Virus record (IMG/VR): IMGVR_UViG_2541047873_000006
From: a virus
Taxonomy: Duplodnaviria > Heunggongvirae > Uroviricota > Caudoviricetes
Strand: one strand, 5' to 3'
Length of the DNA: 37,458 bases
Below the pieces are notes generated by a model, which had not been told where the DNA came from, did not search any database, and saw only the letters and a program-made list of their open reading frames with translations. Below are positions 3,183-36,462 of this stretch, piece after piece (within the stretch, counting starts at the first letter, position 1; each line of letters opens with the position of its first letter). The position numbers and the translations under genes were made by a program.

Positions 3183-3385
3183 GTATATTTATCTCATGGC
3201 TTGTTCTGATTATTTCGGTGGCCTGCGCCATTGGGATTATGCGAATTATTAATTCAGTGAAAAAGATCGAGCGTTTTTTCTCTGATGAATAACGATACAA
3301 ATAAAACATCAAATCAAATAAGAAAACGTGAAAACCATCCGTATTAACGGAGGTATTCGCACACGCAAATAACGGAGATACAAAA

Positions 3386-3796: not shown

Positions 3797-3819
3797 GGTT
3801 ACTGGACAAAGGGGGTGCA

Positions 3820-4023
3820 ATGGCAATTAAGCATTTTCCCGTCGTTCGCTTTACCTCCAGAGGGCGCGAATACGAGGTCGACGAACGCCTGATTACCACT
3901 ATCGACAAACATCGTTCGGAAAAGGATGCACACCACATCTACCTCACTGACGGTACTTACTTCTGCGCCACCAACGTGGCGCGGGTGAATCTTATCCGAC
4001 AGGTACAGGAGCCACGCAGATGA
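3820..4023 (+). CDS. Hypothetical protein (67 aa)
   Basis: Track ORF; stop overlaps the next start (ATGA), suggesting translational coupling. Confidence 0.45.
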   Translation: MAIKHFPVVRFTSRGREYEVDERLITTIDKHRSEKDAHHIYLTDGTYFCATNVARVNLIRQVQEPRR

Positions 4024-4286
4024 CCATTCTGGACTACATCGCTACTCATCCGGGTTGTAGCGGCGGAGAGATCGCCGCAGCACTGAATACTCCAACCACA
4101 GCCATTAATGCTGAGTTACGCCAACTTTGGCGCGGCGGCTTAGTCATCAGAACAAACCGCAGCACAGGTGGTCGCGCTCGCAAAACTGGAGGCCAGGCTT
4201 CTTACCACGTAAACCCGATGCCGTTCGGGTGTAGCAATCCACTTACTCACATGTTTAACCAGCTACTAAAGGAAGCCAGAACATGA
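4020..4286 (+). CDS. Hypothetical protein, possible winged-helix DNA-binding fold (88 aa)
   Basis: Track ORF; LDYIATHPGCSGGEIAAALNTPTTAINAELRQLWRGGLV resembles a winged-helix recognition unit (impression by eye only). Confidence 0.45.
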   Translation: MTILDYIATHPGCSGGEIAAALNTPTTAINAELRQLWRGGLVIRTNRSTGGRARKTGGQASYHVNPMPFGCSNPLTHMFNQLLKEART

Positions 4287-4582
4287 GCACCATCAACCAC
4301 CAGAAGCTACGCGAACTGGCATTTGCCCTGCAACGAATGGCAACGCCTCAAAAATTACTGGCATTTCGCGCAATGCTCTCGCCGTCTGCTGTGCTGGCAC
4401 TGCTGGATGAGCTGGAGCACGCCAGAACCACGGCTCCTGCCATTCGCCTGACACTCCATCATGAAATCGCTGATTTCTGCGCGACGTTGGAGGCACCAGG
4501 CGAACCGGAAACGCCGGAAGCAATACAGCAAGAGCTGCTGCAACGCATTGACAAGGTTTTTGATTTTTTTCTGAACCAGTAA
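4283..4582 (+). CDS. Hypothetical protein (99 aa)
   Basis: Track ORF; ATGA overlap with the previous ORF. Confidence 0.5.
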   Translation: MSTINHQKLRELAFALQRMATPQKLLAFRAMLSPSAVLALLDELEHARTTAPAIRLTLHHEIADFCATLEAPGEPETPEAIQQELLQRIDKVFDFFLNQ

Positions 4583-4673
4583 GAAACCAGAACATGCACA
4601 CACAAAAAAACCGCTTGCCATGCCGCAATCAGTCAGGTTACATTTCCGCTGCACCTCATAAAACGGGTGCCGG

Positions 4674-4897
4674 GATTCTCAACCCGATACAGAGCAAAGC
4701 GCATAACCGCGCCAGCGGTTTTTTTGTGCGTACTGTATTGCCACGTCTTTTTCGCGTCAGAATTATGGCGGGGCGTACGGGGCCGACTTCGGTCGGGCCG
4801 GATTCTTTGCTCTCCGGTGTTGAGAACCCTGTACGTCTCGCCACCCCGAGATTCTCAACTCTGGATGGTGAGCTATTTCTATCACCGAGCAAAGAGG
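4674..4897 (+). other. Structured, repeat-containing leader/intergenic element (candidate cis-regulatory RNA or small RNA)
   Basis: Motif pair TTCTCAAC...GAGCAAAG at about 4676-4699 and 4853-4893, with its exact inverse CTTTGCTC...GTTGAGAA at about 4805-4826; a cUUCGg tetraloop hairpin at about 4779-4800; the third copy overlaps the AAAGAGG ribosome-binding site of the 70-aa ORF. Confidence 0.35.
4704..4727 (+). terminator. Candidate intrinsic terminator or attenuator inside the early operon
   Basis: AACCGC-GCCA-GCGGTT stem-loop followed by a run of seven T. Confidence 0.4.
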
Positions 4898-4904
4898 CCA
4901 CACC

Positions 4905-5117
4905 ATGGCAAACCGCAAACAACAGCGCGCATACGCTGCGCGTCGTCACATCCAGACTGAAATCAACCGTAGACTTTTCCGCGCATCACGCGTCGCGCAA
5001 ATCATGCACATCAATATGCTGCATGAGCGCAGCCACGCGCTATCGAACATCTATTCCGCCTCTGTTTTCAGCTATCTGGCGGATGATCTGCGCGAGCTGC
5101 AACAACTCTTCCAGTAG
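4905..5117 (+). CDS. Hypothetical basic protein (70 aa)
   Basis: Track ORF with AAAGAGG 8 nt upstream; Arg/Lys-rich N-terminus. Confidence 0.45.
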   Translation: MANRKQQRAYAARRHIQTEINRRLFRASRVAQIMHINMLHERSHALSNIYSASVFSYLADDLRELQQLFQ

Positions 5118-5207
5118 CAAAACAAACTCCATTAATTCCTGTTCCGGGCCTTTCCTGCACCTTGCGGCGGGAGGCCTTCGCACATCTGTAGTAAAGAGAA
5201 TTGCAGC

Positions 5208-5597
5208 ATGATTGACGCTCATGACTTCACAAGATGGGTGCGCACACAGGACACCCGTCTGGCTCCCGTTCTTCAGGGATTATTTGATCTCTACATCCGT
5301 GGTCGTGACAACAGAGCACGCACCACAAAACCAGAGAATGCAGACACCCTTTATTTCACAGTAGACGACTGCTACCGCGTGGACTTCACACCACACGGGC
5401 TGGCGTTGCACTGCCTGACACCACACGGAGAATCACTGCTGGCGTATTACGACTCCCCGGCCTCCGTATTTGCGGCAATGCTGGCGCATCGCACTGCTGG
5501 CGGGTGTGCCTCGCTGAGTGAATACACCGCTGAATTTAACCGCCTTTCTGCCCTCTTCTCGCAGGAGTGGCAGCGCGTGACGGGATACCAGCCATGA
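5208..5597 (+). CDS. Hypothetical protein (129 aa) immediately upstream of A
   Basis: Track ORF; its TGA stop overlaps the ATG of gene A (ATGA). Confidence 0.55.
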   Translation: MIDAHDFTRWVRTQDTRLAPVLQGLFDLYIRGRDNRARTTKPENADTLYFTVDDCYRVDFTPHGLALHCLTPHGESLLAYYDSPASVFAAMLAHRTAGGCASLSEYTAEFNRLSALFSQEWQRVTGYQP

Positions 5598-8434
5598 GTG
5601 AGTTTGCATGGAGCTGGAATGAACCACGGCCAGCCATTGATCCGGCCAGATTTACGGAGCACAGGCAGGAAACTGAAACCGACCTGCAACGCGCCATCCG
5701 TTACTACCTTGAGGCGGACAAAAAGGCCCGGGAAGAACAGGAAGCGAAGGAGGAAGCCTTTTTCGCACAATCCGCCATGGGTAAAAAACTCATGGCATCC
5801 CTTGAGGAAGCCGGACAGCGTGAAAAGCTGGCACAGAGCATCATCAGTAAGCGCCGGGCAACAGAACAAGACCCGGTGGCCCGTGCCTTTGCCACACTGA
5901 AGGCGCTTCCCGTTTATCTGCGAGAACCTCTGAGCCGCCACCTCTCTTTCCTGCGCAAGAAGCAGGAAGCCGATCGTCAGAAAGGCAAAAAGAGCTGGCA
6001 GGCGGAACGCTATGCACGCGGAACCCTGCGCAAAATATTCGAACGTCTGGACCGCACCGACAGCCGCTGGCTGACACCGGGTTATCGCTCCCTTGCCGGA
6101 CGCGAACGCCTGGACGATTTGCTTTACCTGCCGCAGCTCAACAAACACCAGATACAGACGCTGGCCACCATGACGGCGGCGATGTTCAGCAGCACCTTCG
6201 AAAAACTCTGCGATGGCTTTGGCGCGACTGATGGCGAACTGACCATGGATGTAACGCTGAAGGCGTATCAGATGCTGGCCCGCATGGCGTTACACCTGCA
6301 CGCCATGCCTCCACATTATGACGCACTGACAACAGACAAAGACCGGAGGAACGAACCGGACACGGAGCTGCTGCCGGGCGCAATCCTTCGCCTGACCTGT
6401 GCGGAATGGTGGAAACGCAAACTGTGGCTGTTACGTTGCGAGTGGAGAGAAGAACAACTCCGCGCCGCCTGTCTGGTTTCCAGAAAAACATCACCCTATC
6501 TGAGCCAGGACGCGTTAAGCGAGTTTCGCGCACAGCGCGAGAAAACACGCGATTTCCTGAAAAGTTTTATGCTGGAAAACGAAGACGGGTTCACGATTGA
6601 TCTCGAAACAGTGTATTACGCGGGAGTAAGTAACCCGGTTCACCGTAAGGCAGAAATGATGGCCACCATGAAGGGGCTGGAACTTCTGGCCGAAGCCCGT
6701 GGCGACAAAGCGGTGTTTCTGACTGTCACCTGCCCGTCAAAATACCACGCCACAACAGAGAACGGTCATCCGAATCCCAAATGGAACGGGGCCACCATGC
6801 GCGACTCCAGCGATTACCTGGTTAACACGTTTTTTGCGGCGGTCCGCAAGAAACTGAACCGCGACGGCCTGCGCTGGTATGGCATCCGCACGGTGGAGCC
6901 TCACCATGACGGCACCGTGCACTGGCATATGATGGTCTTTGCTCATCCGGAAGAAATCGACACCATTGTGTCCCACACCCGCGATATTGCCATTCAGGAA
7001 GATCGTCACGAGCTGGGTGATGATATTACCCCACGCTTTAAGGCGGAGTACGTCGACGGCTCAAAAGGTACGCCAACCAGCTACATCGCCACCTACATCG
7101 GAAAGAACCTGGACAGCCGCGCCGTGGATGGCATCGACCCGAAAACGGGCAAGCCACGCGTTGACCACGAAACCGGAAAATCAATGGCCGAGAGCGTGGA
7201 ACGCGCCATCGGCTGGGCGCGCCTTCACCGTGTCCGCCAGTTCCAGTTCTTTGGTATCCCCTCCCGTCAGGTGTGGCGTGAACTCCGCCGCCTTGCCAGC
7301 CAGATGGCACGCAACCCGGAAGGCCCGCAACGGCTGAAGGATGACGCAATGGATGCGGTACTCGCTGCCGCTGATGCCGGATGTTTTGCCACCTACATAG
7401 AGAAACAGGGCGGCGTACTTGTTCCACGCAAAGACTACCTGATTCGCACCGCCTACGACCTCGCAGATGAGCTGAACGATTACGGCGAACAGAGTGTACA
7501 GATTTACGGGATCTGGTCGCCGCTCATCGGGGAATCCTCCCGTGTGTGCACGCATCCGGATAACTGGAAGCTGGTAAGACGTAAACCGGAAGTGGAAGAC
7601 AGCGCCCGCGAAAATGGTTTTGACCTTCAGGGCGGCCCTGCCGCCCCTTGGACTCGTGGCAATAACTGTCCCCGTGTACAGGAAACGGACAACAACGGGA
7701 CAGAACAGCCGGAAGAACGGCCAGCACCGTGGCCGCAGCTTCCTGACGGCATTGAAGTGAACGAATGGATGCGCTCACTGAAACGGCACGAACGCCGGGC
7801 GCTGATGCGTTCGCTTCGTGACAAACAGGCAAAAAACAGCAGTGATGAAATGCAGAGCTGGACACAGAGCCGCAAACAGCAGCGGCCTTTGCCTGATAAC
7901 CACGAATTACTCGCTAGAGAATGGCGGGAGTCTGCTGAATCTCTCGGCCTGCATATCGGTGAACAACAAATGCAGCACCTGTTACGGGGCGGCAGTCTGT
8001 ACGTTGACGGCAGCATCATTGCACCGCAGGGATTTGAAATTGTACGCAAACCGGATACCCGCCCGGACAGCCGAATCACGCAGCTCTGGCAACGCCTGAG
8101 CCGTAATCACGGCGTAAGCAGCACGGAGATCCGCCATAACCCGGTCGCCAGCTATCTGGAACAGCTGGGGGCATCAGACCCTGAAGCCGCCGCACGCCTG
8201 GCATCCACACTTCAGCAGGACCAGAACACCATGAAAACACCCGTTACCGTGCTTTCTGACATGCTGCGCGCCATCCGCGACGCAGAGCACGCACAGAGAA
8301 TCAGTGAAACCACTGAACGCGCCCGCCGCAAAGCAGACCTGCTGCGGGGTGGCCTGACCAGTGGAAACAAAAAACAGACAGAAACGGGATTCACAAATCC
8401 CGTAAATGAGCAAAAAACGCGCCGCGATATATGA
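5594..8434 (+). CDS. A: Rolling-circle replication initiator / replication endonuclease (P2 gpA-like), about 946 aa
   Basis: Track ORF 5567..8434 (GTG); ATG 5594 preferred because of the ATGA coupling. HUH motif in EPHHDGTVHWHMMVF and catalytic tyrosine motif in YIATYIGKN; the first 760 aa are collinear with the recalled P2 A protein. Confidence 0.9.
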   Translation: MSEFAWSWNEPRPAIDPARFTEHRQETETDLQRAIRYYLEADKKAREEQEAKEEAFFAQSAMGKKLMASLEEAGQREKLAQSIISKRRATEQDPVARAFATLKALPVYLREPLSRHLSFLRKKQEADRQKGKKSWQAERYARGTLRKIFERLDRTDSRWLTPGYRSLAGRERLDDLLYLPQLNKHQIQTLATMTAAMFSSTFEKLCDGFGATDGELTMDVTLKAYQMLARMALHLHAMPPHYDALTTDKDRRNEPDTELLPGAILRLTCAEWWKRKLWLLRCEWREEQLRAACLVSRKTSPYLSQDALSEFRAQREKTRDFLKSFMLENEDGFTIDLETVYYAGVSNPVHRKAEMMATMKGLELLAEARGDKAVFLTVTCPSKYHATTENGHPNPKWNGATMRDSSDYLVNTFFAAVRKKLNRDGLRWYGIRTVEPHHDGTVHWHMMVFAHPEEIDTIVSHTRDIAIQEDRHELGDDITPRFKAEYVDGSKGTPTSYIATYIGKNLDSRAVDGIDPKTGKPRVDHETGKSMAESVERAIGWARLHRVRQFQFFGIPSRQVWRELRRLASQMARNPEGPQRLKDDAMDAVLAAADAGCFATYIEKQGGVLVPRKDYLIRTAYDLADELNDYGEQSVQIYGIWSPLIGESSRVCTHPDNWKLVRRKPEVEDSARENGFDLQGGPAAPWTRGNNCPRVQETDNNGTEQPEERPAPWPQLPDGIEVNEWMRSLKRHERRALMRSLRDKQAKNSSDEMQSWTQSRKQQRPLPDNHELLAREWRESAESLGLHIGEQQMQHLLRGGSLYVDGSIIAPQGFEIVRKPDTRPDSRITQLWQRLSRNHGVSSTEIRHNPVASYLEQLGASDPEAAARLASTLQQDQNTMKTPVTVLSDMLRAIRDAEHAQRISETTERARRKADLLRGGLTSGNKKQTETGFTNPVNEQKTRRDI

Positions 8435-8510: not shown

Positions 8511-9470
8511 ATGAAAATTTGTATCGACGACGGCTCCACCAACATCAAGCTGGCATGGACTGAGAACGGCGAACGCCGCAACGCCATCAGCCCGAACAGC
8601 TTCAAGTCGGAATGGTCTGCGCCGTTCGGTGGCACGCAGCCCGCGAACTACATGCTTGATGGCGTGCGCTATGGTTTTGATCCGGTCAGCGATCGCTTTG
8701 TCCAGACGACCGACACGCAATACCAGTACAGCGATGTGAATGTCATTGCCATTCATCACGCGCTGGTCAAATCAGGCATCACGCCACAGGAGGTGGATGT
8801 GGTTGTCACCCTGCCACTGAGCGAGTATTTCGACACAAACGCACAGCCGGACATGGCCAACATCAACCGCAAAAAAGCGAACGTTATGCGCCCGGTGGAG
8901 TACCAGAACGGCGAAGCATTCACTATCCGTAACGTGCGGGTTATGCCTGAATCCATTCCGGCTGGCTTTAAGGCACTGGCTGACATGAGTCCGTTTGAAT
9001 CCCTGCTGATTGTGGATTTAGGCGGAACCACGCTGGATGTGGCAAAGGTTCAGGGGCAACTGGCAGGTATCAGCCAGGTGTTTTGCGATCCACACGTAGG
9101 CGTTTCCCTGATGGCCGATGCCGTGCTGTCGGTGATGGCCGCTAACGGTATGCGTACCAGTCACCACATCGCCAATACCATTATCGAACATCGCCATGAT
9201 GAAGCCTGGTTGCGCCAACACATCCACAATGACGCGCATTACGCCAGCCTGATGGCGGTTATTCGTGAAAAGGAAGAAACACTGAAACAACGCGTGATCC
9301 GCGCGCTGGCGGGTTTTTCGGGTTACGGACGGGTGATGGTTGTCGGTGGCGGGGCGGAGATTGTGGCACCCGCTATCCGCGAAGCCTGCGGAGTTAATGC
9401 GACTTTCATCGCGGACGGGGTGCCACAGTTTGCTCTGGTTAATGGGCTGTACGCAATGGACAAGGAGTAA
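8511..9470 (+). CDS. parM: Actin-like segregation ATPase ParM/StbA family, 319 aa
   Basis: MKICIDDGSTNIKLAW...ISPNSFK...YQYSDVNV...MPESIPAG...LIVDLGGTTLDV...VMVVGGGAE is collinear with the recalled plasmid R1 ParM (MLVFIDDGSTNIKLQW...); AAGGA Shine-Dalgarno. Confidence 0.9.
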   Translation: MKICIDDGSTNIKLAWTENGERRNAISPNSFKSEWSAPFGGTQPANYMLDGVRYGFDPVSDRFVQTTDTQYQYSDVNVIAIHHALVKSGITPQEVDVVVTLPLSEYFDTNAQPDMANINRKKANVMRPVEYQNGEAFTIRNVRVMPESIPAGFKALADMSPFESLLIVDLGGTTLDVAKVQGQLAGISQVFCDPHVGVSLMADAVLSVMAANGMRTSHHIANTIIEHRHDEAWLRQHIHNDAHYASLMAVIREKEETLKQRVIRALAGFSGYGRVMVVGGGAEIVAPAIREACGVNATFIADGVPQFALVNGLYAMDKE

Positions 9471-9474
9471 ACCA

Positions 9475-9789
9475 ATGACGACACCAACCAGACGGATAAG
9501 TTTCTATCTGAAGCCCGCCGCCGTCAATAGTGAACGGAAGGCGTGTAATTACCTCGACAGCCTGCCAGCCTCTGAACGCAGCCGCGCGCAACGCGCGGCC
9601 TTTCTGGCCGGGCTGGCACTCATAAAACGCGATCCTGCATTTGCCTATTGGTTGGCCGAATGGCCGGAAGAAGGAGCTGCGCCAGCAAAGAATAATATTC
9701 AGAGTAAATATGCCAGCACACCTGCCACCGGAAGCAATCACAGCACTAGCGAGATAAGAAAGAACATTCAGTCATTTTTCCCGGAGTGA
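9475..9789 (+). CDS. parR: ParR/StbB-like ribbon-helix-helix centromere-binding adaptor, 104 aa
   Basis: ATG 9475 with CAAGGAG 7 nt upstream, in frame with track ORF 9340..9789; ISFYLKPAAVNSERKACNYLDSLPASERSRAQRAAFLAGLAL matches the recalled R1 ParR N-terminus (IAFKLNPDVNQTDKIVCDTLDSIPQGERSRLNRAALTAGLAL). Confidence 0.8.
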   Translation: MTTPTRRISFYLKPAAVNSERKACNYLDSLPASERSRAQRAAFLAGLALIKRDPAFAYWLAEWPEEGAAPAKNNIQSKYASTPATGSNHSTSEIRKNIQSFFPE

Positions 9790-9808
9790 AAACAGGAGAG
9801 GTGCATCT

Positions 9809-10240
9809 ATGGCAACTATTCCCAAAAAATGGTTACAACGCAAAATCGCAGACCTTGAATCGTGTCGTGAAGACATCCCATTTGGCCTTGATGAAAACGA
9901 TCACAATATGTTAATCGCACTGAAAATCGCACTCACATCGCTGGAAGCGAAACCTGTTGCATGGACTGATGATGAGGAACTGCGTGATGTCAAGCAGTAT
10001 GGTTTCGGTGAGATATTTCAGTGTCCGCCAGATAAATACGCGGATCCGCGCCGTGTTATCCCTATGTATCAAGAGCCGCCAGCGCCAGCAGTACCAGATG
10101 GGCTGGTTAGAGCGGTGCGTTTCTATGAACAGGTTAAGCGTGAAAATCCGCCAGCCGAAACCGGAGCATGGAAAGACGCTGTTGACTGGGTGCTCAAAGA
10201 GGCCTGCCAAGTTGTAAACACTGGCATCAAAGGAGACTGA
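9809..10240 (+). CDS. Hypothetical protein (143 aa), first of three small cargo ORFs after parR
   Basis: Track ORF with AGGAGA Shine-Dalgarno; carries an IAL-x-SLEA-x-PVAW motif shared with the ORF at 10448..10708. Confidence 0.5.
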   Translation: MATIPKKWLQRKIADLESCREDIPFGLDENDHNMLIALKIALTSLEAKPVAWTDDEELRDVKQYGFGEIFQCPPDKYADPRRVIPMYQEPPAPAVPDGLVRAVRFYEQVKRENPPAETGAWKDAVDWVLKEACQVVNTGIKGD

Positions 10241-10241
10241 T

Positions 10242-10451
10242 ATGGCTATTGCCGCAAGTTACACCATGCATCTCTATTGTGATTGCCTCCAGTGTACAGA
10301 TGGCAAATATAAGTCGCCAGACTTCGGTGAGTATATAGGTACGTCATGGGCTGGCTGTGCAAAAGAGGCGCGCAAGGATGGCTGGCGAATAAGCAAAGAC
10401 AAAACGCGTGCTTTTGCGCCCGGGCATAAAGTTTTGAGGATTAACAAATGA
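10242..10451 (+). CDS. Hypothetical Cys-rich small protein (69 aa)
   Basis: Track ORF; Cys cluster CDCLQC plus a distal Cys suggests a possible metal-binding knuckle. Confidence 0.4.
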   Translation: MAIAASYTMHLYCDCLQCTDGKYKSPDFGEYIGTSWAGCAKEARKDGWRISKDKTRAFAPGHKVLRINK

Positions 10452-10708
10452 CCACTTTAACCGACAAAGAACTGATTAAAGAAATCAAAGAGCGCATAGG
10501 CAGCCTAGACGTGAGAGACAATATTGAACGCCGTGCTTATGAAATTGCTCTGGTATCGCTGGAAGCAGAGCCAGTAGCATGGATGCATGTAAATAACGGC
10601 ATCGGAATACCAGCAATAACAAGGAGTAAAGAGGTTGCAGAGAGTTGGTTATCAAAAGGCTGGTATGTCCAACCCTTACATCTAGCCCAGCCTGCATCAA
10701 AGCTATAG
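10448..10708 (+). CDS. Hypothetical protein (86 aa), paralogous motif with the 9809 ORF
   Basis: Track ORF with ATGA overlap; the shared motif is also visible in DNA (TCGCTGGAAGC in both genes). Confidence 0.5.
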   Translation: MTTLTDKELIKEIKERIGSLDVRDNIERRAYEIALVSLEAEPVAWMHVNNGIGIPAITRSKEVAESWLSKGWYVQPLHLAQPASKL

Positions 10709-10717
10709 AAATGAGCC

Positions 10718-10746
10718 AAAACGCCCTCTTCCAGGGCGTTTATTTC
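10718..10746 (+). terminator. Intrinsic terminator ending the A/parMR accessory operon
   Basis: AACGCCCT-CTTCC-AGGGCGTT stem-loop followed by TATTTC, 10 nt after the stop at 10708. Confidence 0.6.
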
Positions 10747-11199
10747 AATGCACAATAGTGCACAAATTTGCACAATTTTTTTGAACGACTTTTTGCCCTT
10801 CCGGCCCGCGGGGCGACTGGATCCGTCAAGGATCCGTGCGTGCACAAAAAAACGCGCTTTTTCTGCGCGCAGGTGACGGGGGAACAGCCCGCGTTTCAGG
10901 GGGTAAATAGCATTCCCTGAACGATGTCGCAGAGATACAACAGAATGGCTGTATTTCTCACGCTGAGCGTGAAAAAGACGTGAGGGCTTTTGATTTGATG
11001 GGGTGAAAGGTAAGGCCGTCAAAATCGCACTGAGACGGCGAGAACATGCAGCCAACGCGGTGGGATTGCGTAAGAGTCTGGCTGTCGATGATGGCAATAA
11101 GCAGGAAAGCGTCGTGAAATTATCTGATTGATACAGGAGCTGGAGAGTCGGGGCATAAATTTTTTATGCCCCGGCGAAGCAGCAGACAAGCGAAGCGCG
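10747..11199. other. Non-coding region adjacent to portal 3' end: candidate cos / packaging region
   Basis: Position corresponds to cos in a P2-type prophage map; GC-rich stretch GGTGACGGGGGAACAGCCC at about 10872-10890 loosely resembles the recalled P2 cohesive end; three TGCACAA copies at exact 10-bp phasing (10749, 10759, 10769). Confidence 0.3.
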
Positions 11200-18826: not shown

Positions 18827-18977
18827 CACTCCCACATGGGGAAATCTCGGTATATGGGGCGACCGCCTTCTGGATGCACTGGAAACCTGTAACGCGGATA
18901 AACGGGCCATTGAATTACTGGAACAGCGCAGGCTGCAACGACTGAACAACAAGGACAACAACCATGCTGAAAACTGA
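18657..18977 (+). CDS. lysC: Outer-membrane lipoprotein spanin (Rz1 / P2 LysC-like), embedded out of frame in lysB
   Basis: Track ORF in the +1 frame inside lysB; lipobox LLTGC; Pro-rich; start may be the internal ATG at 18687. Confidence 0.55.
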   Translation: MNSYATILQKMNAPTLCLTLVLLTGCAGTQNAPLPAPSVRLIPQTLTIPVTPPPFPDTPTWGNLGIWGDRLLDALETCNADKRAIELLEQRRLQRLNNKDNNHAEN

Positions 18978-19431
18978 TTCCCTGCGTGAAGCCATGACCC
19001 GTTCATGCCGATGGTGTCAGGCCAACCCGGAAAAATTCACCATTTTCGTGGAGAGCGGCAACATTGAAACGACAGGAGAAACCCCATCGTTTGTTTACCG
19101 CTATCAGATGGTGATGTTTGTCATGGATTACGCCGGGGAGCTGGACGACCTCACGCTGCCGCTGCTGGCGTGGTTATCCGAAAATCAGCCACAGTTGTTG
19201 CTCAACCCTGAGCGTAATCAGGACATCAAATTCTCCGCCGTTATCAATGACGATGACAGCGCCGATCTCCTGTTTACGCTCCCCCTGCGGGAACGCGTTC
19301 GCATCACGCGCAGCAGTCAGGGCACACCGCAGGCAGAACACCTGCCTGAGCCAAAACCCCGCCTGCCATCTTCCGAAGGCGACTGGTCGCATGTATTCCA
19401 GGATGTGACGTGGGGTGAAAGCGATGGATAA
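18964..19431 (+). CDS. R: Tail completion protein R (P2 gpR-like), 155 aa
   Basis: Track ORF; size and position as P2 R. Confidence 0.8.
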   Translation: MLKTDSLREAMTRSCRWCQANPEKFTIFVESGNIETTGETPSFVYRYQMVMFVMDYAGELDDLTLPLLAWLSENQPQLLLNPERNQDIKFSAVINDDDSADLLFTLPLRERVRITRSSQGTPQAEHLPEPKPRLPSSEGDWSHVFQDVTWGESDG

Positions 19432-21884: not shown

Positions 21885-22404
21885 TTCACTGTTACCGCCA
21901 TCAGCCAGCAATTTCATGCGTTGCGCCGAAGCTGTCGGAGCGCGCATTACAGACATTCCGGTAGACCTCAACACGCTGTGGTCGCCGGACACCTGCCCGG
22001 TGCATCTGCTGCCTTATCTCGCCTGGGCATTTTCCGTTGACCGCTGGGATCGCAACTGGCCGGAAGAGACAAAGCGACAGGTGATTCGTGATGCATGGCT
22101 GATACACCGACACAAGGGAACCATCAGCGCACTGCGCCGGGCCATTGAGCCGCTGGGATATCTCATTCGTGTGTCTGAGTGGTGGGAGTTCGACGGCGAA
22201 CCCGGAACATTCAAGGTTGATGTTGGCACGCTGGACAGTGGTGTGACCGAGGAAATGTATCTGGAAATGGAACGGCTGATTGCCGATGCCAAACCCGCAA
22301 GTCGCCACCTTATCGGCCTGAACATTATCCAGGACATTCCCGGCTATCTGTATACAGGCGGTGTGGTCTGTGATGGTGATGTTATTACTGTTTATCCCGG
22401 ATAA
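21877..22404 (+). CDS. I: Baseplate/tail protein I
   Basis: ATG 21877 (MSNSLLPPS...) overlapping the J stop, in frame with track ORF 21844..22404. Confidence 0.8.
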   Translation: MSNSLLPPSASNFMRCAEAVGARITDIPVDLNTLWSPDTCPVHLLPYLAWAFSVDRWDRNWPEETKRQVIRDAWLIHRHKGTISALRRAIEPLGYLIRVSEWWEFDGEPGTFKVDVGTLDSGVTEEMYLEMERLIADAKPASRHLIGLNIIQDIPGYLYTGGVVCDGDVITVYPG

Positions 22405-22414
22405 GTGAGAAACA

Positions 22415-25150
22415 ATGAGCACGAAATTTAAAACCGTTATCACTACTGCCGGAGCCGCAAAGCTGGCTGCCGCCACTGTCCCCGGCGGGAAAAAAGTAAA
22501 CCTGTCTGCAATGGCCGTGGGTGACGGTAATGGCAAATTACCGGTGCCGGATGCCGGTCAGACGAAACTGGTGCATGAGGTCTGGCGTCACGCTCTGAAT
22601 AAAGTCAGTGTGGATAATAAGAATAAAAACTATATTGTGGCTGAACTGGTTGTTCCGCCAGAAGTGGGCGGCTTCTGGATGCGTGAGCTTGGTCTGTATG
22701 ACGATGCCGGAACACTGATTGCGGTATCCAACATGGCAGAAAGCTATAAGCCAGAACTGGCTGAAGGCTCCGGACGTGCGCAGACCTGCCGCATGGTTAT
22801 TATTCTCAGCAACGTGGCGTCCGTTGAGCTGAGTATTGATGCCAGCACAGTGATGGCTACGCAGGATTACGTCGATGACAAAATCGCAGAGCATGAGCAG
22901 TCCCGCCGCCATCCTGACGCCACGCTGACAGAAAAAGGTTTTACTCAGTTAAGCAGTGCAACAAACAGCACCAGTGAAAAGCTGGCGGCAACGCCAAAAG
23001 CGGTCAAGGCTGCGAATGACAACGCAAATTCACGTCTGGCGAAAAATCAGAACGGTGCAGATATCCAGGATAAATCAGCTTTTCTGGACAATGTTGGCGT
23101 TACCAGCCTGACGTTTATGAAAAACAATGGCGAAATGCCGCTTGATGCTGATCTGAATACGTTTGGTCCTGTTAAGGCTTATTCAGGTATCTGGTCTAAA
23201 GCAACATCCACCAACGCAACACTGGAGAAAAATTTCCCGGAAGATAATGCTGTCGGTGTGCTTGAGGTTTTTGCTGCCGGCAATTTTGCAGGTACGCAAC
23301 GCTTTACCACGAGAGACGGCAATGTATACATGCGTAAACTCGCCAATAAGTGGAATGGCACTGATGGTCCGTGGGGCGTATGGCGTCACACTCAATCTGC
23401 TACCCGCCCTTTGAGTACGACTATAGACCTGAATACGCTTGGAGCCGCCGAGCATCTTGGTTTATGGCGTAACAGTAGCTCAGCTATAGCTTCATATGAA
23501 CGCAATTATCCAGAGGAAGGCGGCTTTGCTCAGGGGATGCTTGAGATCCTCGAAGGCGGAAATTATGGAAGAACGCAACGTTATACCACTCGCCGTGGAA
23601 ATATGTACGTCCGCTGCCTTGCGGCAAGCTGGGATGCATCAAATCCGCAGTGGGAACCGTGGTTAAGAGTCGGTCATCAGTCAGAGAGTCGTTATTACGA
23701 CGGGGATTTGAATGATGTGACTTCACCAGGTATTTACAGCGTTACAGGTAAAGCGAGCAACGGTCCAATACTGGATGGAAACGGCGTGACAGTCCTCGGT
23801 ATTCTGGAAGTGTTGAGGCGCTTTGATGGTGTTAACGTATGGCAGCGTTATACAACTGCCGGAACAGGTACAACCCTTAAAGGTCGCACGTTTGAGCGCG
23901 TTTTTACCGGCAGCTCATGGAGCGAATGGCGGGAAGTTTACACATCTTATTCACTTCCCCTGAATCTGGGTATCGGCGGCGCAGTAGCAAAACTATCCAG
24001 TCTGGACTGGCAGACCTACGATTTTGTGCCGGGCAGTCTGATAACCGTTCGGCTTGATAATATGACCAACATTCCCGACGGTATGGACTGGGGCGTCATT
24101 GATGGCAACCTGATAAACATCGCAGTTGGTCCGAGTGATGATTCCGGTACGGGGCGCTCAATGCATGTATGGCGCAGCACTGTAAGTAAAGCGAACTACC
24201 GCTTTTTTATGGTGCGTATTTCAGGAAATCCGGGAAGCCGCACGATCACAGCAAGACGAGTACCAATCATTGACGAAGCCCAGACATGGGGCGCGAAACA
24301 GACATTCAGTGCTGGCCTTTCTGGTGAACTGTCCGGCAATGCGGCGACAGCAACAAAGCTGAAAACAGCCCGTAAAATTAATAACGTTTCGTTTGATGGG
24401 ACATCAGATATTAACCTGACGCCGAAAAATATTGGTGCATTTGCTTCAGGAAAAACAGGAGACACCGTTGCGAATGATAAAGCCGTTGGATGGAACTGGA
24501 GTAGCGGAGCCTATAACGCAAATATTGGTGGGGCATCAACGTTAATTCTTCATTTTAATATCGGTGAAGGAAGTTGCCCCGCCGCCCAGTTCCGCGTTAA
24601 TTATAAGAACGGCGGTATTTTTTATCGTTCTGCTCGTGACGGTTACGGATTCGAGGCTGACTGGTCTGAGTTTTATACCACAACGCGAAAACCTACAGCG
24701 GGAGATGTCGGTGCACTGCCGTTATCTGGTGGTCAATTGAATGGTGCTCTGGGTATAGGAACATCCAGTGCTCTTGGCGGTAATTCGATTGTTTTGGGTG
24801 ATAATGACACGGGCTTTAAACAAAATGGTGATGGTAATCTGGATGTTTATGCTAATAGCGTCCATGTTATGCGCTTTGTCTCCGGAAGCGTTCAAAGTAA
24901 TAAAACCATAAATATTACGGGGCGTGTTAATCCCTCGGATTACGGTAACTTTGATTCCCGTTATGTGAGAGATGTCAGACTTGGCACACGTGTTGTCCAG
25001 GTCATGCAGAAAGGGGTGATGTATGAGAAAGCAGGCCATGTAATTACCGGGCTTGGCATTGTCGGCGAAGTTGATGGCGACGATCCGGCAGTATTCAGAC
25101 CAATACAAAAGTTAATTAACGGAACGTGGTACAACGTGTCACAGGTGTAA
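22415..25150 (+). CDS. H: Tail fibre protein (P2 gpH-like), 911 aa
   Basis: Track ORF; conserved N-terminal block MSTKFKTVITTAGAAKLAAA...WMRELGLYDDAGTLIAVSNMAESYKPELAEGSG as in P2 H; large variable C-terminal part with internal repeats. Confidence 0.85.
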   Translation: MSTKFKTVITTAGAAKLAAATVPGGKKVNLSAMAVGDGNGKLPVPDAGQTKLVHEVWRHALNKVSVDNKNKNYIVAELVVPPEVGGFWMRELGLYDDAGTLIAVSNMAESYKPELAEGSGRAQTCRMVIILSNVASVELSIDASTVMATQDYVDDKIAEHEQSRRHPDATLTEKGFTQLSSATNSTSEKLAATPKAVKAANDNANSRLAKNQNGADIQDKSAFLDNVGVTSLTFMKNNGEMPLDADLNTFGPVKAYSGIWSKATSTNATLEKNFPEDNAVGVLEVFAAGNFAGTQRFTTRDGNVYMRKLANKWNGTDGPWGVWRHTQSATRPLSTTIDLNTLGAAEHLGLWRNSSSAIASYERNYPEEGGFAQGMLEILEGGNYGRTQRYTTRRGNMYVRCLAASWDASNPQWEPWLRVGHQSESRYYDGDLNDVTSPGIYSVTGKASNGPILDGNGVTVLGILEVLRRFDGVNVWQRYTTAGTGTTLKGRTFERVFTGSSWSEWREVYTSYSLPLNLGIGGAVAKLSSLDWQTYDFVPGSLITVRLDNMTNIPDGMDWGVIDGNLINIAVGPSDDSGTGRSMHVWRSTVSKANYRFFMVRISGNPGSRTITARRVPIIDEAQTWGAKQTFSAGLSGELSGNAATATKLKTARKINNVSFDGTSDINLTPKNIGAFASGKTGDTVANDKAVGWNWSSGAYNANIGGASTLILHFNIGEGSCPAAQFRVNYKNGGIFYRSARDGYGFEADWSEFYTTTRKPTAGDVGALPLSGGQLNGALGIGTSSALGGNSIVLGDNDTGFKQNGDGNLDVYANSVHVMRFVSGSVQSNKTINITGRVNPSDYGNFDSRYVRDVRLGTRVVQVMQKGVMYEKAGHVITGLGIVGEVDGDDPAVFRPIQKLINGTWYNVSQV

Positions 25151-25153
25151 TTT

Positions 25154-25681
25154 ATGCAGCATTTAAAAAACATTGTCGCCGGCAATCCAAAAACCGTTGA
25201 GCAATATCAGCTAACAAAAAATTTTAATGTTGCCTGGCTGTGGTCAGAAGACGGAAAAAACTGGTATGAGGAAGTGAAGAACTTTCAGCCGGACACAATA
25301 AAAATTCTTTACGACGAGAACAATATTATTGTGGCTGTAACCAGAGACGCTTCAACACTGGACCCTACAGGCTACAGCGTTGTCGAAGTTCCCGATATCA
25401 CCGCCAATCGTCGCGCCGACGATTCAGGAAAGTGGCTGTTTAAGGACGGAGCTGTGGTTAAACGGATTTATACGGCAGACGAGCAGCAACAGCAGGCCGA
25501 ATTACAAAAGGCCGCATTGCTTTCCGAAGCTGAATCAGTCATCCAGCAGCTGGAACGCGCTGTCAGGCTGAATATGGCGACGGATGAGGAGCGCACACGA
25601 CTGGAAGCCTGGGAACGCTACAGCGTTCTGGTCAGCCGTGTGGATACAGCAAAGCCCGAATGGCCACAAAAGCCTGAGTAA
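25154..25681 (+). CDS. G: Tail fibre assembly chaperone (P2 gpG-like), 175 aa
   Basis: Track ORF directly after H; size as P2 G. Confidence 0.8.
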
Positions 25682-25895
25682 AAATTAAGCTCCGATATCG
25701 GGCCTTCTCTCATTCTGGTTGTTCGGGAAACGTTACTGGCAGGCCGGAGGTGTCTGTGGATTCGACTTTCTACGCGTAGAGCATCCATTCGGTTAATTTT
25801 TGTTTATTCTCGTCGGAAATGATGCCCAGCCGTAGCTGTGAGCACCATAGGCGATATACAGACTGAAGAAACAACCAGGCAGATCCAGGAAAAAG

Positions 25896-32898: not shown

Positions 32899-33921
32899 TT
32901 AATACGCATTTAATTTAAATTTGTATTTGCCTTCTATGTAATGGATAAATTCAATTATGCTTTTTTCTATCGCATCTAATATATGAATATATCCATCCCG
33001 ATTTAAGGTCCTATCCAACTCAAAGTGATGAACTATCCCATGTCTATATTGTATGATTTCAGAAATTCGATTCTCAAGAAAATCAACTGATTTTCCAATT
33101 CTTTTTTTCTTATAAAGAATCGCTCTCACATCTATATCCAGCCACTCTTTATATGCTTTGTTTAGGTGGGTTAAGTTTTGAAAAGTGTAATTTCTTGCAA
33201 TAACACTTTCTATTGAAATATTTCCTTTCTCTATCTCAAGCAGAATATCAAAATCAACTTTTTGCTTATACGATGTTCTTTTTGCTATTGCGAAAGGATC
33301 GTACTTTATAAGTATTTGAAAAGCTCTAGAGAAAAAGTATTCAAACATAGCAACCGCAAAAGGTACTAATCCATTATATATAACTCTACTGGGATCCATA
33401 CATTGCATGTAATCAAAGTATTCGGATAAGCCGCCATCTTCCGGTAGGTTTAATTTAATAGAAGGTTCAGGTAAGGCATGTTTAACAGCGGAAATCTCAT
33501 GATGGACATGATTAAATATTGAAGAAATGCCACGACTGATCGGACTACTAGAATCCTTCCATAGAGGAGCGTACCTATTTTTCCCATAATCACCTATAAG
33601 TGTTCCACCAAAAAGACTCCTTGCGCCTTTTAGAACATCATTAAGCATTTTTACATCATGCCAACTAGCGCTATATAAATTACGCACATGCAATGCCCAT
33701 TTATTACCAGATATGTGTAATTCGTCATTTGAAACAGGATATATATCAGCCGAAACTCCATCTGTAGATTTGAAGTCTGTATCATCAAACCAAGAGTAAT
33801 TCAACGTTCCTTGGGGCCATTCCCACAAATGTTTACACCTTTTAAAACCTAAATTTTCAAGGTAATTTTTAAGTTCGTTTCTAGTTGCTTTTTTAGGGTA
33901 CAGCGTTATATCTCTTCCCAT
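32899..33921 (-). CDS. AT-rich cargo gene between D and ogr; 340-aa protein with C-terminal HEPN-like R-x4-H motif (candidate abortive-infection/defence effector)
   Basis: Track ORF; visibly lower GC than the flanking phage genes; opposite strand to D and ogr; motif ...IIQYRHGIVHH... in a predicted helical C-terminal half. Confidence 0.65.
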   Translation of the reverse strand: MGRDITLYPKKATRNELKNYLENLGFKRCKHLWEWPQGTLNYSWFDDTDFKSTDGVSADIYPVSNDELHISGNKWALHVRNLYSASWHDVKMLNDVLKGARSLFGGTLIGDYGKNRYAPLWKDSSSPISRGISSIFNHVHHEISAVKHALPEPSIKLNLPEDGGLSEYFDYMQCMDPSRVIYNGLVPFAVAMFEYFFSRAFQILIKYDPFAIAKRTSYKQKVDFDILLEIEKGNISIESVIARNYTFQNLTHLNKAYKEWLDIDVRAILYKKKRIGKSVDFLENRISEIIQYRHGIVHHFELDRTLNRDGYIHILDAIEKSIIEFIHYIEGKYKFKLNAY

Positions 33922-34112: not shown

Positions 34113-34373
34113 ATGTTCCGTTGTCCGCTTTGTGGCGCATCTGCCCGTATCCGCACAAGTCGTCCGGAAAATGATTCAAACACCGTGCGGCAAAAGTATT
34201 ACCAGTGTAACAATCTGGAATGCGGCGTATGCTTCTCAACACTGGAAGCTTTCCATAAATTCACATCGAAACACGCCTCCGGCGTTCACTCTTCAGAAGG
34301 TATCCCGTGGCATGAGCTACCAGCTTCACACAGGGGAAACAATCAGATGAGTTTGCCTTTACCTCAGAATTAA
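34113..34373 (+). CDS. ogr: Late gene activator Ogr/Delta-family zinc-finger protein, 86 aa
   Basis: MFRCPLCGASARIRTSR...YYQCNNLECGVCF matches the recalled P2 Ogr (MFHCPLCQHAAHARTSR...YHQCQNVNCSATF) with the same Cys spacing; GGGAGG Shine-Dalgarno. Confidence 0.8.
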   Translation: MFRCPLCGASARIRTSRPENDSNTVRQKYYQCNNLECGVCFSTLEAFHKFTSKHASGVHSSEGIPWHELPASHRGNNQMSLPLPQN

Positions 34374-34563: not shown

Positions 34564-34704
34564 ATGTCGCAAAAATCGCTTACAGCCATCACGTTCTGCG
34601 TGACGGTAATCCTCATCATCTGGATGTTGCACGGTTCGCTGTGCGAAATACGGATGAGTTTCTGGGGAGCGGAGTTTGCGGCGTTCTTACAGTGTAAGCA
34701 GTAA
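34564..34704 (+). CDS. Hok/Gef-family type I toxin (46 aa)
   Basis: Not in the ORF track (under 60 aa); ATG 34564 with AAGGAG 8 nt upstream; N-terminal transmembrane helix then ...SLCEIR...EFAAFLQCKQ, matching the Hok family signature (LCEIR...EVAAF). Confidence 0.6.
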   Translation: MSQKSLTAITFCVTVILIIWMLHGSLCEIRMSFWGAEFAAFLQCKQ

Positions 34705-34735: not shown

Positions 34736-34964
34736 AATCGGTTGCCAGGGTAAGGTCGATAAGGCACCCTATCTCACGGCTCTAAATGCAAAAATTCCAT
34801 GAAACTGTGGGATTTTTGCATCACTACTGATACAGATCTGCCCTTCTATATGTCTCACTCTATACCAGCTAATCAATTGACACTTATCAATAAAAAAAAT
34901 CTGATAAAATCAAAATGTTTTGTAACAAATATCAACTCGTATTGATCCAAAGGAGGCGGATTAC

Positions 34965-35297
34965 ATGGCATTAATCAAATGTCCTGAATGCCAGAAAGAG
35001 GTGAGCGATTCAGCATTGTATTGCCCTGCTTGCGGTAAACAAATAAAAAAACTTAAGCGTTCATTTTTTGGAAAGCTCATTAAGTGGATATTTATATTAT
35101 TTAATATTTTTATGATCTATACGCTTTTAGTTGGACTGGGAGGCACTAGTGAAATAATAAATAATGCTACATCCGATGCCGAAAAAGCCGGTGCAGTTAT
35201 TGGTACAGGCTTAGGTTTAATTACCATTGGAAGTTTATGGGTTATTGGCGATATCATTATCGGAATTTTAGTATTTCTTACTAAACCAAAAGGATAA
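34965..35297 (+). CDS. Zinc-ribbon membrane protein (110 aa), AT-rich cargo
   Basis: Track ORF with AAAGGAGG Shine-Dalgarno; CPEC-x12-CPAC ribbon then two hydrophobic helices. Confidence 0.6.
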   Translation: MALIKCPECQKEVSDSALYCPACGKQIKKLKRSFFGKLIKWIFILFNIFMIYTLLVGLGGTSEIINNATSDAEKAGAVIGTGLGLITIGSLWVIGDIIIGILVFLTKPKG

Positions 35298-35301
35298 CAA
35301 A

Positions 35302-36195
35302 ATGAAAAATATAATTTTTTCTATAGGTGCATCATTTATATCAATTAGTGTACTGCCTGTTCACGCAGCAACTGAACATAATAACTTCAATGCAGTACTC
35401 CAGTGCCGAGCAATAGAAAATAATAAAGACAGACTTTCTTGTTACGATAAGTCAATACAACCGACTCGAACGAAAGTTGCTGAAAAATTCGAAAGCAGAG
35501 ATCAATGCCCTGATGAGAAAGATGATGACAGACGTTTATCTTGTTATGATCGTTTTTTTTCTCCAACATTTACTCCATCTGTAAACTCAAAATCTAAAAC
35601 GGAAAAGCCAGTAACAACAGAGGCTCAGCAACCAAATCTTTCTGAGATATCTAAATGCCGAGCAGAAAATGATAAAGAAGCCAGACTAAACTGCTACGAT
35701 AAACTATTCCCACAGGATAAAGCTGTTCAAGCTGAATCAAAATTAGAGAAAGCCACAGATGTAGGAAAATGGCACACATCCATTACTACATCGCCAATTG
35801 ATGATTCGAAAAATGTAATTTTATCGTTAGAAAGTGATGATTATATCAGAACTCCATTTGGAGAAGCGGTTACTCCCACTCTGTTTATAGCTTGCCGAGA
35901 AAAGAAAACCGAAGTATTTCTTAGTTGGGATGTATATTTAGGCCTTGAACAAACCAGCATGCTTTATCGTCTTGATAAACAGAAAGCAGTTGAGCGAAAC
36001 TGGCTAGTATCTACAGATACAAAGGCTGTTTTTTATAAAGGTAATGACATTGATTTCATCCGAAAACTAGCCAACTCAAACAAAATGTATACAAAAATAA
36101 CTCCTTATAATGAGAGCCCTGTAAGTGCAACTTTCAATTTAAACGGCCTGTCAAACGCGCTAAAACCACTTCAAGCTGCTTGTAACTGGAAATAG
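35302..36195 (+). CDS. Secreted protein with three Cys-pair repeats (297 aa), AT-rich cargo
   Basis: Track ORF; signal-peptide-like N-terminus; three repeats of C-x(7-9)-RL-x-CYD-[KR]; starts 5 nt after the previous stop. Confidence 0.65.
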   Translation: MKNIIFSIGASFISISVLPVHAATEHNNFNAVLQCRAIENNKDRLSCYDKSIQPTRTKVAEKFESRDQCPDEKDDDRRLSCYDRFFSPTFTPSVNSKSKTEKPVTTEAQQPNLSEISKCRAENDKEARLNCYDKLFPQDKAVQAESKLEKATDVGKWHTSITTSPIDDSKNVILSLESDDYIRTPFGEAVTPTLFIACREKKTEVFLSWDVYLGLEQTSMLYRLDKQKAVERNWLVSTDTKAVFYKGNDIDFIRKLANSNKMYTKITPYNESPVSATFNLNGLSNALKPLQAACNWK

Positions 36196-36221
36196 CATAA
36201 ATCATGTGGCTTAGCCACAAT

Positions 36222-36266
36222 CACAGATAACACAAAGCCCGTGAAAACGGGCTTTGTGTTATCTGT
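36222..36266 (+). terminator. Long perfect palindrome / terminator-like hairpin after the cargo operon
   Basis: CAGATAACACAAAGCCCG-TGAAAA-CGGGCTTTGTGTTATCTG, an 18-19 bp perfect stem; not followed by a clean T-run. Confidence 0.45.
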
Positions 36267-36276
36267 AACTCGAAAA

Positions 36277-36297
36277 TGTGGTCACTACGTGGACACG
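36277..36297. repeat. Candidate attR core (imperfect copy of sequence at window 10-30)
   Basis: TGTGGTCACTACGTGGACACG versus CGTGGACACTGCGTGGACACT at positions 10-30 (17 of 21 identical); similarity stops on both sides. Confidence 0.3.
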
Positions 36298-36462
36298 TGC
36301 TGATATAAATCCTTTTATATCAATAAATTAAATCATCATTTTTTTCATCAACAAGGATTTTCACGTTTGTGTTACCTGTATGAGACGAGAGTTAACCGGA
36401 CAAGTGTGCCATAATCTCGCGGCCAGGCATACTTGCGAAGATTTCAGGTATAAGGATACGTA

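Follow-up and report, generated by a model that had tools for sequence, protein, structure and literature searches.

A two-gene accessory cassette for a predicted zinc-ribbon membrane protein and a predicted exported VasI-family protein at the right end of a P2-like prophage

Introduction

Several phages encode small inner-membrane or periplasmic proteins that are expressed in the infected or lysogenic cell, among them Imm and Sp of T4, SieA of P22, gp15 of HK97, and RexAB of lambda, the last encoded after the repressor. Exclusion proteins that act at the level of the envelope are often encoded beside the repressor or as morons. Phages related to P2 also carry AT-rich, optional cargo of benefit to the lysogen at fixed positions, both as the classical accessory genes (old, tin, and Z/fun) and in defence hotspots. 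A pair of adjacent genes which is likewise AT-rich and optional is described here from IMG/VR virus record IMGVR_UViG_2541047873_000006 (Caudoviricetes), a stretch of DNA of 37,458 nt that was analysed as a whole and is referred to as the window. It is a P2-like prophage. The first gene of the pair (gene 1; 34965–35297, + strand) encodes a predicted inner-membrane zinc-ribbon protein of 110 aa, here called ZnR, and the second (gene 2; 35302–36195, + strand) a predicted exported protein of the VasI/TagO family, of 297 aa.

The hotspots named for P2-like phages are gpA-portal, tail, int-att, int-primase, and one between a tail protein and CI (Rousset et al., 2022; 2026 NAR survey). The present pair differs from the cargo of these hotspots in its proteins and in its slot, which lies between ogr and attR, and no known defence model matched it.

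Three described groups of proteins come closest to gene 2. VasI/TagO proteins are encoded with type VI secretion systems (T6SS), examples being VCA0118 of Vibrio cholerae and EDL933_RS01165 of the Escherichia coli T6SS-2, and their role in secretion is given as unknown (PMC13584744). IalB is the product of the Bartonella invasion-associated locus B (PF06776, PDB 3DTD). SDIC4 of Serratia includes a small secreted VasI-like protein and is found in mobile or defence contexts of Enterobacterales, its subtype II with small membrane proteins; SDIC4B, which is secreted and has a VasI-like fold according to its authors, by itself gives 10–200-fold phage resistance (bioRxiv 10.1101/2024.01.28.577318).

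Earlier records already cover the family and database name of gene 2 and its occurrence in prophages. In the literature searched, no account was found of the delimitation of the ogr-attR slot, of a phage clade apart from the VasI of T6SS, or of the expansion of the cysteine hairpins. The same searches gave no account of a recurrent zinc-ribbon partner with two transmembrane (TM) helices, including a fusion of the two, or of ZnR with variable secreted partners beside phage repressors.

Prophage boundaries and the cargo slot

The integrase gene lies at the left end of the window and is followed by replication, head, lysis, and tail genes, and then by gpD and ogr. In related E. coli genomes the element is found between pdxB and flk. 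Prophage-free E. coli genomes, in which pdxB adjoins flk, lack the gene pair, and their match to the window starts exactly at 36342. This is the first position of a 20-nt direct repeat, TTTTCATCAACAAGGATTTT (36342–36361), which is the attR core and right prophage boundary; an identical copy of the 20-mer stands beside the start of pdxB (attL) in a related lysogen. On the other side, ogr and hok of other E. coli P2-like prophages can be matched up to about 34777, beyond which the sequences diverge. Because the ogr/hok homology stops at about 34777 and host homology begins at 36342, the interval 34778–36341 (35.5% G+C) is a variable cargo slot. Other prophages have it empty or filled by a BRCT-domain protein, a small hypothetical protein, a pair of Com and a DNA methyltransferase, or a RES-domain protein together with the ZnR-VasI pair.

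A first-pass annotation, made from the letters of the window alone, had picked out the two genes as adjacent, AT-rich, and 5 nt apart. Both open reading frames are as described there, and their G+C content of 35.7% compares with 54.4% in the structural region of the prophage and 52.8% in flk, although the gap is of 4 nt (CAAA). The pair lies within an att-delimited element, is missing from empty sites, is optional among related prophages, and has a deviant base composition, and a putative promoter and terminator of its own can be read in the sequence. It is a two-gene accessory ('moron') cassette in the variable ogr/hok-attR slot of a P2-like prophage at pdxB-flk. The att core and the empty sites agree with the earlier view of the pair as prophage cargo with products predicted to be located in the envelope.

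The full pair was found in 237 of 5426 complete E. coli genomes (~4%), isolates of sequence type 131 (ST131) included. In 236 of these 237 carriers the ogr-hok-pair-attR-flk context is whole. Beyond E. coli, the carriers include many prophages of Klebsiella, Salmonella, Citrobacter, Dickeya, and Pectobacterium. Sequenced P2-like phages of Escherichia, Citrobacter, and Klebsiella have the pair intact (the Klebsiella copies are 73% and 64% identical), and the order gpD-ogr-ZnR-VasI-end recurs at different att sites in Dickeya, Klebsiella/Raoultella, and Salmonella.

The pair adjoins the host gene flk and lies beyond ogr, the normal end of a P2 genome, as an ordinary host pair (core or island) merely beside a prophage would. 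This explanation is refuted, with next to no probability left to it, by the att core to the right of the pair, by the prophage-free genomes with pdxB directly beside flk, by the presence of the pair in sequenced phage genomes, and by further prophages, in other genera and at other att sites, that have it at their ends. A core host pair in prophage-free strains, which the first-pass annotation had named as evidence against its own reading, was not found, as the only match of such strains to the window begins at 36342.

Gene 1, a predicted zinc-ribbon membrane protein

The zinc ribbon noted in the first-pass annotation is formed by C6PEC9...C20PAC23, and residues 5–26 match Pfam Zn_Ribbon_1 (PF13240; E 1.8e-7, 31.2 bits, gathering threshold (GA) 25), which places gene 1 in that family. 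The two TM helices noted with it correspond to hydrophobic segments at about residues 37–57 and 79–105. The charges follow the positive-inside pattern, with +4 in the N-terminal region, −2 in the loop, and +2 in the C-terminal tail. The predicted topology is a cytoplasmic ribbon, the first TM helix, a periplasmic loop of ~20 aa, the second TM helix, and a short tail, again cytoplasmic, with TKPKG as its last residues.

The PHROG family of gene 1 is phrog_6586 (E 7e-43), and homologues of the protein across Enterobacterales and Haemophilus are nearly always of ~110 aa, with 64–76% identity. Of the four cysteines, C6, C20, and C23 do not vary among 27 homologues, and C9 hardly does. The ratio of non-synonymous to synonymous substitution rates (dN/dS) is 0.19–0.23, indicating purifying selection.

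Weak matches to PF28000 are precomputed for gene 1 homologues. The half of gene 1 with the two TM helices aligns end to end with DrpB (YedR), a non-essential divisome protein of E. coli with two TM helices, from an RS..GK..W start to a shared ...TRPK/R ending. DrpB has no zinc ribbon, unlike gene 1, and all scores are below threshold (NF038392, 22.1 bits, E 1.4e-4, against a cutoff of 50 bits; hhalign E 0.0017, probability 15.6%). The resemblance may be real but remote.

Gene 2, a predicted exported VasI-family protein

At the N-terminus of gene 2, one hydrophobic segment is followed by VHA/A, giving a predicted signal peptide at about residues 1–22. Behind it are exactly three repeats, starting at residues 35, 69, and 119, and a C-terminal domain of ~145 residues. 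These parts had been described in the first-pass annotation, with a looser spacing of the repeats, which is C-x8-RL-x-CYD-[KR] in each. It had recognised no family, and here it is superseded, as residues 118–296 cover positions 1–184 of the 184 in Pfam VasI (PF11319; 89.6 bits, GA 26.5), the RefSeq name of gene 2 is TagO, and both genes have PHROG families. The whole of the VasI architecture is present, with signal peptide, C-x8-RL-x-CYD hairpin, beta domain with a conserved cysteine pair, and C-terminal C-x-W, and gene 2 has two hairpin copies beyond the single one of that architecture. VasI homologues with one, two, or three hairpins have lengths of ~210, 250, and 297 aa.

In the AlphaFold model of gene 2, residues ~155–297 (pLDDT > 90) form a beta sandwich with two helices, and the three repeats are helical hairpins on disordered linkers. 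The conserved cysteines fit one disulfide in each hairpin (C35/C47, C69/C81, C119/C131) and one in the beta domain (C198–C294). Gene 2 is predicted to be exported by Sec and oxidised in the periplasm, with the disulfide-clamped hairpins serving as a flexible tether.

The beta domain superposes on the IalB structure (PDB 3DTD) and has an IalB-like fold. Identity with IalB is 19%, below the Pfam gathering score, and IalB lacks the cysteine hairpins and the ZnR partner of the present pair. The mechanism of IalB is itself unknown, therefore the match gives a fold and not a function. Nothing in the beta domain suggests an enzyme, and because no catalytic signature was seen it is probably a periplasmic binding module. 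A PDB sequence search with the family profile of gene 2 gave chance matches only.

BLASTP of gene 2 against SDIC4B (PF27224) found no match, hhalign of the two family profiles gave a probability of 1%, and the fold comparison gave a weak link. Gene 1 has no similarity to SDIC4A (secreted, 151 aa), and a partner like that of SDIC4, the subtype II genes included, is not present beside gene 2. On the negative BLASTP and hhalign results and the weak fold link, SDIC4 was rejected as a true homologue of the pair.

For the whole of gene 2 dN/dS is 0.12–0.15, with 0.05–0.07 in the C-terminal domain and 0.21–0.33 in the repeat region. Given the purifying selection on both, gene 1 and gene 2 are real coding genes and not chance reading frames. 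The beta-domain family comprises 3627 clusters at E ≤ 1e-3. A fold search of BFVD matched only uncharacterised viral proteins, including those of the T4-like phages Escherichia RB16, Klebsiella KP15, Aeromonas 65.2, and Vibrio VH7D; since the fold is predicted in proteins of virulent T4-like phages, the domain is not confined to temperate phages.

Relation to type VI secretion

The VasI of the E. coli T6SS-2 (strain EDL933), encoded between tssH and tssA, is homologous to gene 2 over the full VasI model, with 26% identity (E 5e-11), and shares with it the signal peptide, the C-x8-RL-x-CYD hairpin, the beta domain, and the C-terminal C-x-W; both belong to the periplasm, gene 2 by prediction. 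The two differ in the number of hairpins, which is one in the VasI of T6SS and three in gene 2, in their site, which for gene 2 is the prophage cargo slot between ogr/hok and attR, and in the ZnR partner, which is beside gene 2 and is absent from the one T6SS cluster examined, the E. coli T6SS-2. Against the TIGR03360 equivalog (cutoff 124.2 bits), gene 2 scores 75.9 bits and its phage-clade relatives 35–57, whereas the VasI of T6SS-2 scores 257.

Wherever the context of gene 2 relatives was sampled, it was the right end of a P2-like prophage or another neighbourhood without T6SS genes, never a T6SS cluster; the family-wide scan of genome loci for T6SS linkage covered 15 loci only. No T6SS Pfam family was found within 6 kb at nine non-enterobacterial loci with homologues, where the neighbours include type I restriction-modification, SIR2, Abi_2, TerB, and FRG genes. 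The identity of gene 2 as a T6SS component was rejected on the TIGR03360 cutoff and the gene context. By the same evidence, gene 2 is a true member of the VasI family in a distinct phage-borne clade, and not a T6SS component. In a survey of Citrobacter rodentium prophages, the PhiSM copy was counted as T6SS or 'virulence' cargo from annotation only (PMC6456863). Databases label gene 2 a T6SS component, and on the evidence above this label is over-propagated.

A role related to T6SS is a different matter from being a component, as gene 2 might modulate a T6SS of the host, or guard the periplasm of the lysogen against T6SS attack in the manner of an orphan immunity protein. The true homology and shared architecture, the VasI gathering score passed, and the RefSeq name TagO speak for such a role. 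P2 tails and T6SS are related contractile machines, which also favours it. It is nevertheless rather improbable, given the failed equivalog cutoff, the contexts sampled, the unknown function of VasI/TagO in T6SS itself, the lack of a ZnR in the T6SS-2 cluster, and the lack of any effector gene adjoining the pair.

Recurrence and linkage of the two genes

Of 35 IMG/VR loci whose ZnR is ≥61% identical, 29 have VasI encoded directly downstream, in the order gpD-ogr-(hok)-ZnR-VasI and then the contig end. There is also a natural fusion (locus L015, 6001–6732; protein P0052), in which ZnR residues 1–54, that is the ribbon and the first TM helix, are joined to the VasI domain. The fusion lies at a P2-like prophage end beside copA, on a single metagenomic contig. 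It fits the predicted topology and a physical link between ZnR and VasI.

At loci where another neighbour stands in for the 110-aa ZnR or accompanies it, that neighbour too has a zinc ribbon and two TM helices and is of the TM2-domain type. From the 4-nt gap, the fusion, and this alternative neighbour we infer a functional link of the two genes. The alternative protein, of 98 aa with a zinc ribbon and a TM2 domain (PF05154), stands alongside VasI homologues at loci L005 (7830–8126), L023 (6713–7006), and L024 (8542–8835). In an E. coli prophage at the ytfP site the VasI homologue is on the strand opposite to it, and in Salmonella and Izhakiella it is additional to the 110-aa ZnR.

In temperate phages outside the P2 group, the ZnR gene is found directly downstream of a repressor gene of the CI/LexA type (HTH and Peptidase_S24). 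The secreted proteins encoded after it are Excalibur-domain proteins, a 115-aa secreted protein, and one SNase-type nuclease, which suggests a general design of a ZnR protein with a variable periplasmic partner. Examples of the order repressor-ZnR-secreted protein are L083 (3315–4779), with the SNase-type nuclease, and L071 (3274–5017) and L057 (3134–4622), with Excalibur-domain proteins. The same arrangement could serve as a rule in searches for more such modules: beside a phage repressor gene, a gene for a zinc-ribbon two-TM protein and, after it, one for a secreted partner that varies.

The VasI family also occurs at this position. In Brucella phage BiPBO1 (gp68-gp67; L121, 2629–4046), a VasI-family gene (PF11319, 64 bits) begins 9 nt after the gene of a CI-type repressor (HTH_3 and Peptidase_S24). 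The position after the repressor is the classical site of exclusion genes expressed in the lysogen, for example rexAB of lambda. With members of either family found next after a CI-type repressor in other phages, we infer that the pair is expressed in the lysogen.

Candidate promoter, operator, and terminator

The first-pass annotation had pointed to an imperfect palindrome and a TTGACA hexamer upstream of the pair, and both are present. The palindrome, ATGCAAAAATTCCA-N8-TGGGATTTTTGCAT (34786–34821), is at the left edge of the cargo and has arms of 14 nt (34786–34799 and 34808–34821) that are 93% complementary; the hexamer is at 34877–34882. The palindrome is absent from all four copies of the module compared from other genera (Klebsiella, Dickeya, Pantoea, and Haemophilus) and was therefore rejected as a conserved operator, and TTGACA is not the conserved −35 element.

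The conserved block is TTGTCA/TTATCA-N15–16-TAAAAT, which precedes the ZnR gene in the Klebsiella, Pantoea, and Dickeya copies and at the fusion locus. In the window it is a likely sigma-70 promoter on the + strand (34884–34910), with a −35 element TTATCA (34884–34889), a −10 element TAAAAT (34905–34910), and a TG at 34902–34903 (extended −10), and it is likely to be the promoter of the pair. Just downstream of the −10 element, a small dyad, TTTGTAACAAA (34919–34929), is the same in the window and in the Klebsiella and Pantoea copies and is a possible operator candidate.

Downstream of gene 2, the perfect palindrome reported earlier at 18–19 bp is confirmed with arms of 20 nt, forming a perfect hairpin (36223–36266) with a 20-bp stem and a GAAA loop. 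Its folding energy is −43.4 kcal/mol (z = −10.4 against shuffles). The inner stem AAAGCCCGT/ACGGGCTTT precedes TTTGTGTT, so that the hairpin probably ends the unit as an intrinsic terminator working in both directions. Neither it nor the conserved promoter was called in strict scans for such signals; the hairpin was missed because the T-run lies within the extended stem. On these sequence signals, the promoter block in front and the hairpin behind are arranged as in a moron whose transcription is separate from that of the late operons.

This layout bears on a possible role in the phage's own lytic cycle, for example in shielding progeny from adsorbing to lysing or infected cells, or in tuning lysis or passage through the envelope. 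The predicted periplasmic and membrane locations would suit such a role, as would the fold in the virulent T4-like phage proteins of RB16, KP15, and Aeromonas 65.2 and a homologue encoded among the tail genes of Pasteurella phage Pmp14. The pair, however, is AT-rich, lies outside the P2 late operons with its own sigma-70-like promoter and terminator, and is optional among similar prophages, and a P2 lysis cassette is present elsewhere in related prophages. A lytic role is therefore very improbable.

Proposed function

The reading preferred here, tentatively and with somewhat less than even confidence, is that the lysogen expresses the pair as an envelope module, for superinfection exclusion or for defence at the level of the envelope. 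The first-pass annotation had suggested superinfection exclusion, envelope modification, or defence; this is still the most plausible view, and the post-repressor site of both families and the phage resistance given by SDIC4B lend it indirect support. Gene 1 would span the inner membrane twice, its ribbon facing the cytoplasm and its ~20-residue loop the periplasm. Gene 2 would be exported by Sec and oxidised in the periplasm, as three hairpins on flexible linkers and a disulfide-locked beta domain of the IalB/VasI type. When the pair is expressed in the lysogen, gene 1 would anchor gene 2, or act as its partner, with gene 2 as the periplasmic binder. The module would then stand in the way of something on its passage through the periplasm, and the likeliest target would be the tail tip or DNA-ejection machinery of superinfecting phages. 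The outcome would be functionally like that of T4 Imm and Sp or of inner-membrane Sie proteins. The mode of action proposed is the same as that of envelope-level exclusion proteins (T4 Imm/Sp, P22 SieA, HK97 gp15), and the likeness is one of general knowledge, not of sequence or fold.

Several results weigh against exclusion or defence. PADLOC-DB 2.0 gave no match at E ≤ 0.1 for either protein or for the relatives P0048 and P0058, and PADLOC gave nothing useful for the alternative cargo of the ogr-attR slot, therefore guilt by association within the slot is weak. Published surveys of P2 defence hotspots list neither the slot nor the VasI family; there is no mention of VasI/TagO in PMC13586616, and no zinc-ribbon cargo protein in PMC9122126 or bioRxiv 10.1101/2024.10.15.618418. 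A literature search on IalB together with prophages or superinfection exclusion turned up no paper that connects them. No diversifying selection was seen in the coarse dN/dS analysis. Genes at prophage ends or after repressors can also be fitness or virulence genes.

Each gene is, moreover, also found without the other, and an obligate two-part machine is not established. In Pantoea and in Haemophilus the ZnR stands alone and seems to be a fixed part of the chromosome, in Pantoea between cueR and copA; these copies may be domesticated prophage remnants. The Pantoea ZnR (L012–L014) is on many contigs with the same promoter block, and in one genome a P2-like integrase gene comes right after it; that of Haemophilus paracuniculus (L011) lies between uvrB and leuB. 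Solitary VasI homologues occur in marine bacteria (Vibrio, Photobacterium, Shewanella, and others), and no ZnR partner was found beside them. In Photobacterium phosphoreum (L016, 8001–9513) such a homologue is beside a gene with an LprI domain (PF07007, lysozyme-inhibitor-like), outside T6SS clusters.

Lysogenic conversion for host fitness or virulence has also to be weighed, with envelope physiology altered through the DrpB-like protein (division or septal) or through the IalB-like domain (host-cell interaction). The solitary ZnR kept in Pantoea and Haemophilus suggests a benefit to the host that is independent of the phage, the two-TM half of gene 1 weakly resembles DrpB, and the PhiSM copy has been called 'virulence' cargo, although by annotation only. 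The similarity to DrpB is, however, under every threshold, and the molecular role of IalB is itself unknown. Carriers of the pair come from commensal, plant-pathogenic, and environmental hosts as well as pathogens, and genes for exclusion are more typically the ones found right behind a phage repressor. Conversion of this kind is therefore unlikely.

A more specific proposal is that VasI-family proteins in general guard the periplasm by binding to contractile injection machines, at the tip or tube, as these pass through it, and that P2-like phages captured one of them; this is distinctly improbable. It would continue, at the same low probability, with the hairpin tether multiplied and coupled to a DrpB-like zinc-ribbon anchor, for exclusion of contractile-tailed phages and/or of T6SS attack. 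Were it true, the T6SS accessory protein VasI/TagO would gain a first function, and the exclusion systems that act at the envelope a new class. If the pair is an exclusion system in the broader sense preferred here, the ogr-attR slot and a new protein family would be added to the P2 defence repertoire, with relevance to phage therapy against ST131 and Klebsiella, and there would be a handle on the function of VasI/TagO and IalB-like proteins.

Other features of the element

The cargo slot is preceded by ogr (34113–34373, + strand), encoding the P2 late activator (Ogr_Delta, E 5e-14), and, directly after it, by a hok/Gef type I toxin gene (34564–34704, + strand; HOK_GEF, E 3.7e-7); both are annotated as such in RefSeq. 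Up to about 34777 this block has 80–96% identity among many E. coli P2-like prophages at different att sites.

Between gpD and ogr there is a second AT-rich cargo gene (32899–33921, − strand; 33.5% G+C), which encodes a protein of 340 aa with a weak, sub-threshold match to HEPN_RiboL-PSP (E 1.2e-4); PADLOC and PHROG searches with it were empty. Other prophages have a 384-aa hypothetical protein, a YecA-family protein, or an alpha/beta hydrolase in this gpD-ogr slot. The gpA-portal hotspot (8511–11097) encodes a ParM actin-like segregation protein (8511–9470), a Plasmid_stab_B protein (~9340–9789), and two open reading frames without a Pfam match (9809–10240 and 10537–11097, the latter on the − strand), with no recognised defence system among them.

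As gpD looks truncated in RefSeq, a defective prophage was considered and rejected, the gpD reading frame of the window being full-length and ending at 32778. Compared with the 266917_2 prophage, to which the element is otherwise 94–97% identical, four stretches of the window have no counterpart (3366–5915, 9527–10749, 18912–19006, and 22307–25848); with these missing there, the element is mosaic at further positions, the tail-fibre region included.

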